The notes under the pieces were generated by a model that made no database searches, was not told the DNA's origin, and saw only the letters and a list, made by a program, of their open reading frames with translations. A DNA stretch of 41,236 nt from Rhodospirillaceae bacterium (lineage in GTDB: Bacteria; Pseudomonadota; Alphaproteobacteria; Rhodospirillales; UBA2165), in contig JABIIH010000286.1 of the NCBI GenBank assembly GCA_018649245.1, positions 1 to 41,236 of the forward strand, written 5' to 3'. Position 1 is the first letter of the stretch, and each line of letters opens with the position of its first letter. The position numbers and the translations under genes were made by a program. Positions 1-1,665 of this stretch are shown piece after piece.

Positions 1-1665
1 CATATTGGTCGAGCGGTACATGGTGCAGCGCTCACTATCGGGCTTCCAGGTTTCGTAGCCGTTAAAAATCACTTTATCACCGTACGGGATGGCGCCGCAG
101 GGACATTCGCGGGCGCATTTAACACATTTGGAGCAAAACTTCTGGACGCCAAAATCAATTGGCTGGTCGGGCGTTAACGGCATATCGGTGGTCAGCACGG
201 CAGTTTTAAAGCGCATGCCGAGAAATGGATTAATGGCGCTTTCGCCGACCCGACTTTGCTCACCGCATCCGGCTGCCAAGACCATCGGCACATGCAGAAC
301 GTGGCTGTCGAGATTGCTGTGGGCGCGGGCGCCGTAGCCCATTTGCCGGATCATTTCCGCCATCACGCCGACGATCTCACCGCCTCGCAAATAAGCCCGC
401 ATCGATTGCGAGCCGGATATCCAGTCATTACCGCTGGCGCCCAAAAACGTCTCATAGCCCTGGTCAATCAACACCACCAAACCGTATTTGTGATAAGGCT
501 CAATCGGCTGGCCGCGCTTATCGTGAGAGTACCAGCAATAATCTGGAATTTCACAAATGCCGGTGATCACCGAGCCCAAATAATGGCTGAGCGCTTTGAG
601 GGCTTTGCTGTTATCGCTGCCGTTCTCACTATCAGGCGCGGTGCCGGGTGCGGTCTGGCCTTCCTGTAAGGGTTTGATTGCCCAGCTTGGCCGGACGATA
701 CCTTGCGATACCGGGTGTTTCTGTGACCAGCGGTCGGCTTCACGCTTGGTTTTGCTACTGAGATCGCCCAAGGCACTGCGCATATACATATTGGCGCGGC
801 TCGGTACGCGGGGCACCTCGTCGTCGAATACTTCGGTGGTTAGGCGGTCGACGCGTTTCAAGGTTTCGACCGGATAGGGCCCGAGATGAGAGGGCCGCTT
901 CTTGACCCGCCAGCGTTCCAGGCCGGAAACCGCGCCGCTGAGACCGAGCTGATAGTTGAGATCACGGCCATTGCGGGCTGAACTATGGAGCGGCAAATCA
1001 ATGGCGAGGGCGTAATCGGTGGTGACCACAGCGACGGCAAACTTATCATCGACGTAAGGGTTGATCAGCTGGTCGCCATCTCTGATAGCGAGCCCTGCCA
1101 AGACCGTCACCATATCCAAATCAATATCGGTCGCGCCAGTCCAGTGAACTCGGCTTTGAAATCCCATCGAGGAAATCTGACCGCTGTTATCAATGGCGAT
1201 TTCAGCGGCGCGCAAGGTCGCCAATAAGTGCTCGTTGCCGGCCACCCAGGCGGCAGCTTTGTTATCGGCATCTATCGGATTGCTGTACTCAACCAGTACG
1301 ACGACGGCATGGCTGTGTGAGGAGTTGGCATTGTCGAGCCTGGCGTTTGCCGGTATTTCGCAAATCCCCACCATTGAAGCATCGAGAAAATAGCCGGCCC
1401 CTTTGATGTCGGTACTGCGACGGGCGAGGTCATCCGGCACCGGTGCTTTTTGGTGGAAGGGTTCGGGCTGCCGTAGTTTTTCAAAGGCGTTCAGATGAAT
1501 GTTGGTGCCGTCGATAAGATATTTATTTTCCCCAACCGGCATGGGACCCGGAGAAGTTGCGGCGCGCGTCGCCTCGGTCTCAATGACAGCAGCATCGCGG
1601 CGCAACCGTTCCAGCGGATAGGGGCCGAGCTCAACCGGCCGGGTGCGGCGTTTGCTGTTCAACAT
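1..1665 (-). CDS. Reductive dehalogenase-like protein (RdhA family, cytoplasmic catabolic type), N-terminal 555 aa; C-terminus lies beyond the window start
   Basis: Not in the supplied ORF track because it has no in-window stop. My reverse-complement translation from ATG 1665-1663 (GGAG 8 nt upstream) stays open to base 1: [21 protein letters not shown]...[46 protein letters not shown]. It has a CxxCxxCxxxCP ferredoxin motif near the end and two tandem homologous halves. All listed ORFs in 89-1728 are short and overlapping. Confidence 0.75.
   Translation of the reverse strand, partial: [555 protein letters not shown]

Follow-up and report, generated by a model that had tools for sequence, protein, structure and literature searches.

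How far can a gene that runs off the end of its contig be read as a dehalogenase, and of which kind? The question is raised by the left edge of contig JABIIH010000286.1 (assembly GCA_018649245.1), a stretch of 41,236 nucleotides (nt) from an uncultured pelagic Rhodospirillaceae bacterium, which was analysed at its full length and is called the window here. An original prediction, made from the letters alone, had placed there a homologue of the cytoplasmic reductive dehalogenases (RdhAs). Among reductive dehalogenases the catabolic RdhAs form the branch that is soluble and tolerates oxygen; they are of interest for bioremediation and for studies of mechanism, and only a handful have been assayed. 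Taking the evidence jointly, the explanation in which we have good confidence is that the gene, rdhA, encodes a cytoplasmic, monomeric catabolic enzyme of the NpRdhA type, reductase-less, and predicted to depend on cobalamin and two [4Fe-4S] clusters, to work by a mechanism like that of NpRdhA and to be under MarR control. This enzyme class is already known and structurally solved, and understanding of its mechanism is unchanged by the present gene; what is new is a member at 45% identity from an uncultured marine Rhodospirillaceae bacterium, representing a large uncharacterised pelagic clade. A literature search on catabolic reductive dehalogenases in marine Alphaproteobacteria gave no hits.

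The rdhA frame and its product

On the minus strand a frame of 555 sense codons, uninterrupted by any stop, begins at ATG 1665-1663 and is still open at base 1. This is the opening that the original prediction had read as missing from the track of open reading frames (ORFs), and all the peptides it cited, including three repeat pairs, are found in the translation. The ORF list for 1-1665 holds only ORFs of 63-137 amino acids (aa), rdhA being absent because the lister omits ORFs that run off the window end.

1..1665, minus strand: rdhA, 3'-truncated coding sequence of a probable NpRdhA-type catabolic (cytosolic) reductive dehalogenase, codons 1-555 of an expected ~724 (open frame, homology, fold)
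1672..1679, minus strand: ribosome-binding site GAGGAGAG, 8 nt before ATG 1665, with a GGAG Shine-Dalgarno at 1677-1674 (read from sequence; kept in the related loci L001 and L003)

In four independent seawater metagenome runs, contigs span the rdhA ORF with zero insertions or deletions, and the ratio of non-synonymous to synonymous substitution rates (dN/dS, omega) is 0.06 against four relatives of 88-92% identity, with omega 0.08-0.10 in the N-terminal copy described below and 0.015-0.02 over residues 381-555. Given the absence of indels and this low ratio, the frame is a real coding sequence under selection and neither a chance opening nor an assembly artefact; in-frame stops and frameshifts, which the original prediction had named as evidence against it, occur neither in the translation nor in the four assemblies. 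Evidence of transcription is weak, a single 244-nt contig identical to 134-377 in one of three marine metatranscriptomes. The metagenome contigs differ from the window by only two substitutions, common to all four, at 1655 and 1657 (T and A in the assemblies, C and G in the window), which change Ser4 to Asn. Asn4 is likewise present in the related proteins P0001 and P0002 and in locus L004, and the window carries a minority or strain-specific variant at these positions.

Among PDB sequences the top match is NpRdhA (4RAS, 6ZXU, 6ZY0; phmmer E 2.3e-146), collinear from residues 6-555 of the query to 6-556 of the 704 in NpRdhA. Identity is 44.9% overall, made up of 34% in the N-terminal domain, 39% in the linker and 63% in the catalytic core (residues 381-555, core plus Fe-S region). 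The same search gave the respiratory enzyme PceA at E 7e-17 and the epoxyqueuosine reductase QueG at E 0.045, and BhbA, encoded on a plasmid of Comamonas sp. 7D-2, is 37% identical across 99% of the fragment. An AlphaFold2 model of the fragment (predicted local distance difference test, pLDDT, 83.8; predicted template modelling score, pTM, 0.88; a low-pLDDT loop at 309-314) matches NpRdhA 4RAS in Foldseek with TMq 0.90 and E 4e-56, as against 0.33-0.37 for PceA and ~0.25 for QueG. The NCBIfam reductive dehalogenase model TIGR02486 matches the C-terminal half, residues 392-547, at 4e-41, and the QueG model TIGR00276 scores 20.4 bits against a cutoff of 200. The family-model and sequence searches and the structural comparison that had been proposed as checks on the original prediction therefore bear out its assignment to the NpRdhA/BhbA class and not the respiratory one, with QueG far from being the sole or best match.

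The product can be divided as follows.

910..1665, minus strand: vestigial N-terminal copy of the B12-binding core (aligns to residues 255-503; 34% identical to the NpRdhA N-terminal domain)
526..909, minus strand: start of the second repeat and inserted helical/linker region, residues 253-380, with pocket residues M293, W313 and S314 (half-to-half and NpRdhA alignments)
151..525, minus strand: predicted functional cobalamin-binding catalytic core, residues 381-505, with S421, M422, Y425 (nt 391-393) and K487 (nt 205-207) (NpRdhA alignment, TIGR02486)
100..135, minus strand: first [4Fe-4S] motif CxxCxxCxxxCP, C511, C514, C517, C521 and P522 (NpRdhA C512/C515/C518/C522)
13..27, minus strand: C547 (nt 25-27), first Cys of the second [4Fe-4S] motif, and R551 (nt 13-15), equivalent to NpRdhA R552, a ligand of the substrate hydroxyl (NpRdhA and homologue alignments)

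In NpRdhA the Tyr426/Lys488 pair forms the proton-donor dyad, Arg552 and Ser422 bind the substrate hydroxyl, and the pocket is lined by F290, F310, P311, A419 and M423 (PMC7565698). NpRdhA Y426, K488, R552, S422 and M423 align with Y425, K487, R551, S421 and M422 of the query, and the catalytic residues and in-window Fe-S cysteines are unvaried among 23 homologues. Of the second [4Fe-4S] motif C547 alone lies in the window; CGRCVKVCP comes next in both P0001, a partial protein 99.6% identical to the query, and the 92% identical locus L002. On these alignments the residues that bear the chemistry are retained while the shape of the pocket is altered, as taken up below.

Residues 1-252 align with residues 255-503 (BLASTP E=8e-21, 27% identity, 262 columns), and the Smith-Waterman score of half against half is 184, compared with 31.6 +/- 4.7 for 200 shuffles (z=32), so that the two tandem homologous halves seen in the original prediction stand. 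In the N-terminal copy the counterparts of the catalytic Y425 and K487 are T150 and A210, and this copy is vestigial, having lost both the Tyr and the Lys. The original statement that NpRdhA carries a degenerate B12 fold was also sound: a vestigial cobalamin-binding domain has already been described in catabolic RdhAs (PMC10463259), and in NpRdhA it imitates the dimer interface of the respiratory enzymes and renders the protein monomeric (PMC10463259; also PMC12219181). The purifying selection on the N-terminal copy noted above is consistent with a structural role.

Features of a membrane-anchored, exported enzyme are absent. The fragment contains neither the RRxFxK motif of the twin-arginine translocation (Tat) pathway nor a hydrophobic or transmembrane segment (maximum Kyte-Doolittle value 0.19 in the first 70 aa for a window of 15, and 1.26 across the 555-aa fragment for a window of 19), and no rdhB anchor gene lies beside rdhA in the window or in its four close relatives L001-L004, the upstream neighbour in the window being a marR gene and the downstream one in L001-L004 a homologue of 4,5-dihydroxyphthalate decarboxylase or an NAD-binding dehydrogenase. 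This agrees with the lack of a twin-arginine leader and of rdhB noted originally. A genome scan, of which the best 80 of 151 encoding loci were retained, placed the closest loci in uncultured marine Rhodospirillaceae metagenome-assembled genomes (MAGs) at 92%, 91% and 88% identity. The gene is 695-757 aa long in 78 of 81 related loci; it is 722-724 aa in the four closest relatives (88-92% identity), and L002 (724 aa), whose second Fe-S motif is complete, aligns to NpRdhA 6-693 (E 1.6e-163). P0001 extends the window sequence by only 29 residues, and the metagenome contig of run X1 reaches ~500 nt beyond base 1. Because these near relatives end at 722-724 aa and L002 aligns through NpRdhA residue 693, the window gene almost certainly belongs to the reductase-less ('truncated') subtype, predicted to carry no domain like the phthalate-dioxygenase reductase (PDOR). 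There are at least 1,350 relatives at E<=1e-10, and the gene was found in at least 20 seawater or marine metagenome runs. With the vestigial domain and linker as query, 416 clusters at 50% identity were obtained, including forms of ~1,040-1,090 aa at ~33% identity.

By analogy with NpRdhA, electrons from a soluble donor would reduce the two [4Fe-4S] clusters and, by way of these, base-off cobalamin, whose Co(I)/Co(II) would attack the halogen and form a Co-halogen adduct with an ortho-halogenated phenolic substrate. The substrate hydroxyl would be held by K487, R551 and S421, the Y425/K487 pair would deliver the proton, with Y425 protonating the carbon, and the halide would leave.

Known systems and rival readings

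NpRdhA of Nitratireductor pacificus pht-3B (4RAS, 6ZXU/6ZXX/6ZY0/6ZY1) has the same layout of vestigial and functional B12 cores, the same active-site set and, as far as the window reaches, the same Fe-S motifs as the window protein; like it, NpRdhA has no Tat signal, it lacks the fused reductase that the window protein is also predicted to lack, and its 704 aa compare with 724 aa in relatives of the window protein. The two differ in the vestigial domain, which is only 34% identical, and at four pocket residues. They differ also in their surroundings, since N. pacificus is reported to have a ferredoxin-reductase/ferredoxin cluster nearby (PMC10463259) and none lies near the window rdhA, which is instead accompanied by marR and an operon of DUF3500/gallate type in an uncultured pelagic host. 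BhbA and JtRdhA of Jhaorihella thermophila belong to the same class, sharing the vestigial domain, the catalytic residues and a cytoplasmic location. They are self-sufficient enzymes for the catabolic debromination of 3,5-dibromo-4-hydroxybenzoate (PMC10463259), with a C-terminal PDOR-like domain and a total of ~1,050-1,090 aa, whereas the near relatives of the window protein stop at ~724 aa.

Since the 3' end of rdhA lies outside the window, a fused NAD(P)H reductase domain of this BhbA/JtRdhA type might be thought to follow, as long forms exist in the wider class and BhbA aligns over nearly the whole fragment. This is very improbable: all four of the 88-92% relatives stop at 722-724 aa, L002 follows the reductase-less NpRdhA as far as residue 693, the long forms (~33% identical) are more distant than NpRdhA (45%), and the next gene in L001-L004 is a convergent decarboxylase homologue. 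Still less credit can be given to the idea that rdhA is a decaying or misassembled, non-functional gene; it is seen as a fragment with one short transcript contig, but it is free of stops and indels in four independent assemblies, omega is 0.06 (0.015-0.02 in the core) and all functional residues are kept. Least probable of all, to a degree that makes it negligible, is a respiratory RdhA or an epoxyqueuosine reductase. The matches to PceA and QueG fall in the shared core and are weak. PceA of Sulfurospirillum multivorans (4UQU) and the RDH complex 8Q4H are homologous to the window protein in the cobalamin core and the 2x[4Fe-4S] region (E 7e-17, TM ~0.35), but respiratory enzymes have a Tat leader, an RdhB anchor and a dimeric state and lack the vestigial domain (PMC10463259), and the window protein is the reverse on all four counts. 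QueG (5D08) has the same class-III cobalamin fold at a distance (Foldseek E ~6e-4), its sequence match being insignificant. A respiratory RdhA or QueG identity is thus refuted by the missing Tat motif, transmembrane helices and rdhB, by the vestigial domain, and by fold (TM 0.90 for NpRdhA, 0.33 for PceA and 0.25 for QueG) and model scores (20 bits against 200 for QueG).

Several observations weigh against the assignment that we prefer, an NpRdhA-type catabolic dehalogenase of the reductase-less subtype. The last ~169 codons, including three of the four cysteines of the second cluster and the C-terminal end, are off the window, and the predicted subtype depends on relatives of 88-99.6% identity. 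The fragment scores 141.9 against the TIGR02486 cutoff of 160.35, a shortfall explained by its truncation, as full-length relatives pass (L002 171.5, P0002 171.7), and Pfam PF13486 (Dehalogenase) has no match at E<=1 to the fragment or to full-length L002 and P0002. Relative to NpRdhA the pocket carries the changes F290M, F310W, P311S and A419G (query M293, W313, S314 and G418), so that 3,5-dibromo-4-hydroxybenzoate is not necessarily the substrate that the enzyme prefers, and the clade members above 55% identity include no assayed enzyme. No conserved redox partner (ferredoxin or ferredoxin reductase) was found near rdhA among 85 related loci, which vary greatly in the genes around it. Past marR the context is poorly conserved across the clade, so that the association with the ring-cleavage operon may be a local one.

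Some of these points would also suit a protein that has the NpRdhA fold and is no dehalogenase in vivo, catalysing a different cobalamin-dependent reduction or acting on a non-halogenated or non-phenolic substrate: the pocket has changed at four positions, the nearest assayed member is at 45% identity, no halogen-specific gene is found in the very variable neighbourhoods, and the sister family QueG does other chemistry with the same fold. We nevertheless consider it unlikely, since the Tyr/Lys/Arg/Ser residues responsible for binding the ortho-hydroxyl and protonating carbon are unvaried across the clade, the core is 63% identical to that of NpRdhA, and all characterised two-domain members (NpRdhA, BhbA and JtRdhA) debrominate ortho-bromophenolics (PMC7565698, PMC10463259).

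The silence of PF13486 has a practical consequence. Fer4_7 is the sole Pfam match for the fragment and for full-length relatives, and surveys or similarity networks of marine dehalogenation potential that are based on Pfam therefore undercount this clade. Many of the relatives are named 'Fe-S protein' or 'ferredoxin' in databases, because Pfam detects Fer4_7 only.

Regulation and gene neighbourhood

Divergently from rdhA, across a 92 base pair (bp) intergenic region, lies a gene for a MarR-family regulator that is HpaR- and BilQ-like.

1718..1731, no strand: 14-bp perfect palindrome ATATCATATGATAT, candidate MarR operator in the rdhA-marR intergenic region (unique in the window)
1758..2219, plus strand: marR-family regulator, probable start ATG 1758, 153 aa, and not ATG 1725, which is inside the palindrome (Pfam MarR 2.4e-11)

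An exact look-up of the MarR sequence matched no record. The counterpart in L001 and L002 is also 153 aa long, and marR adjoins rdhA in 16 of the 37 closest loci (4/4 of the closest and 12/33 of the next-closest). The palindrome sits within a 24-bp block that is unvaried at five loci despite variable flanks, in six loci (L001-L005 and L008), down to ~75% RdhA identity, an exact copy precedes rdhA by ~50-70 bp, and a sigma-70-like -10 element of the marR operon overlaps it. From this arrangement we infer that the palindrome is a MarR operator governing both transcription units; MarR would release it on binding a phenolic ligand, turning on rdhA and the operon headed by marR together.

That ten-gene operon (2274..10312 beyond marR, intergenic gaps 5-74 bp) includes the following genes.

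2274-3542, plus strand: DUF3500 protein (Pfam)
3561-5192, plus strand: DmdB-type acyl-coenzyme A (CoA) ligase (NF005426 850.7 bits, cutoff 822)
5267-5935, plus strand: dienelactone hydrolase (Pfam/NCBIfam)
5942-6835, plus strand: LigI-like amidohydrolase (Pfam/NCBIfam)
6841-7911, plus strand: 4-oxalomesaconate tautomerase (532 bits, equivalog cutoff 440)
7926-8531, plus strand: single-domain VOC/extradiol-dioxygenase-like protein (Pfam/NCBIfam)
8538-9416, plus strand: NAD-binding dehydrogenase (Pfam/NCBIfam)
9422-10312, plus strand: EamA exporter (Pfam/NCBIfam)

Judged from these family assignments it is a putative downstream ring-cleavage pathway, into which the dehalogenated product would pass, so that the aromatic compound would supply carbon instead of being respired. 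DUF3500 has been tied to tetrahydroxybenzene ring cleavage in fungi, and the genes from 2274 to 8531 could amount to a bacterial version of the 1,2,3,5-tetrahydroxybenzene pathway of fungi, where DUF3500 has been proposed to cleave the ring. Together the candidate operator and the adjacent operon offer handles on the natural substrate. Two further observations concern this operon: the DUF3500 protein also matches PDB 9X86, 'Amc20' (5e-18), and the VOC-like gene is missing from the otherwise collinear 92% relative L002, where the alignment breaks between 7907 and 8520, so that this gene is a strain-specific insertion or deletion within the operon.

On the other side of rdhA, beyond the window edge, all four closest relatives have a convergent homologue of 4,5-dihydroxyphthalate decarboxylase (PDB 9JP7, E 1.3e-71; L002:12177-13172, L001:5099-6094; no Pfam or NCBIfam match), and L001 has a tripartite ATP-independent periplasmic (TRAP) transporter on that side as well. 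The neighbourhood is consistent with a part in the catabolism of aromatic acids or phenolics. Beyond the closest relatives only MarR and 'a' CoA ligase recur near rdhA.

This recurrent ligase takes three arrangements. In the subclade of the window it is the DmdB-type enzyme inside the marR operon. Many clade members at 70-75% identity have a different ligase, ~26% identical to the first, which immediately follows marR or else lies on the rdhA strand, 120-170 bp downstream of that gene; it is a separate gene 130-170 bp downstream in L017 and L025. In L019 (PBIN01000014.1, Rhodospirillaceae MAG SP3, 6898-10653) an rdhA 71% identical to that of the window runs stop-free into the same AMP-binding acyl-CoA ligase as an ORF of ~1,255 aa, which is either a natural fusion or the product of a lost stop or assembly error. 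It is tempting to suppose that RdhA of the pelagic clade is functionally coupled to an acyl- or aryl-CoA ligase, possibly with a DUF3500-type ring-cleavage route as well, but we regard this as tentative and rather doubtful. DmdB is a 3-methylthiopropionyl-CoA ligase common in marine Alphaproteobacteria, and passage of its model by the window ligase argues against a specific aryl role, while the rdhA-adjacent ligases of the 70-75% clade match generic acyl-CoA synthetase models only, all below cutoff, and for this reason the coupling is a lead and not a finding. Were it true, brominated phenolic acids of natural marine origin would be open to aerobic degradation by a CoA-linked pathway, its substrate range determined by the remodelled pocket (M293/W313/S314/G418), and this route would depart from the NpRdhA/BhbA paradigm.

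Other features of the window

About 16 kb from rdhA (17443-22625) are the oxygenase component of an HpaB-family flavin monooxygenase (317 bits, under the equivalog cutoff; no reductase component adjoins it) and then a two-subunit enzyme like indolepyruvate:ferredoxin oxidoreductase; these genes may serve aromatic hydroxylation and ferredoxin-linked chemistry.

A cluster that resembles a very divergent heme-copper oxidase (HCO) occupies 10305-15674 on the minus strand and is accompanied by a Crp/Fnr regulator (16156-16860). Its subunit I-like protein (564 aa) matches Pfam COX1 at 4e-66 but reaches only 78.7 bits where the CtaD cutoff is 670. Alongside it are a cupredoxin subunit-II-like protein (181 aa), an SCO1-like protein, a 167-aa ORF without assignment and a 523-aa fusion of cytochrome b, a 2x[4Fe-4S] ferredoxin and an FlpD/MvhD-like domain. 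The cluster, partly kept in L002 and L004, might be nitric oxide reductase-like or a novel member of the HCO family with its own electron-input module.

At 24144-41190 lies a polysaccharide/lipopolysaccharide cluster with two asparagine-synthase paralogues, an O-antigen-ligase-like protein, a heptosyltransferase, five GT4 glycosyltransferases and an epimerase, and with a lower G+C of 0.44-0.47 over about 26-36 kb.

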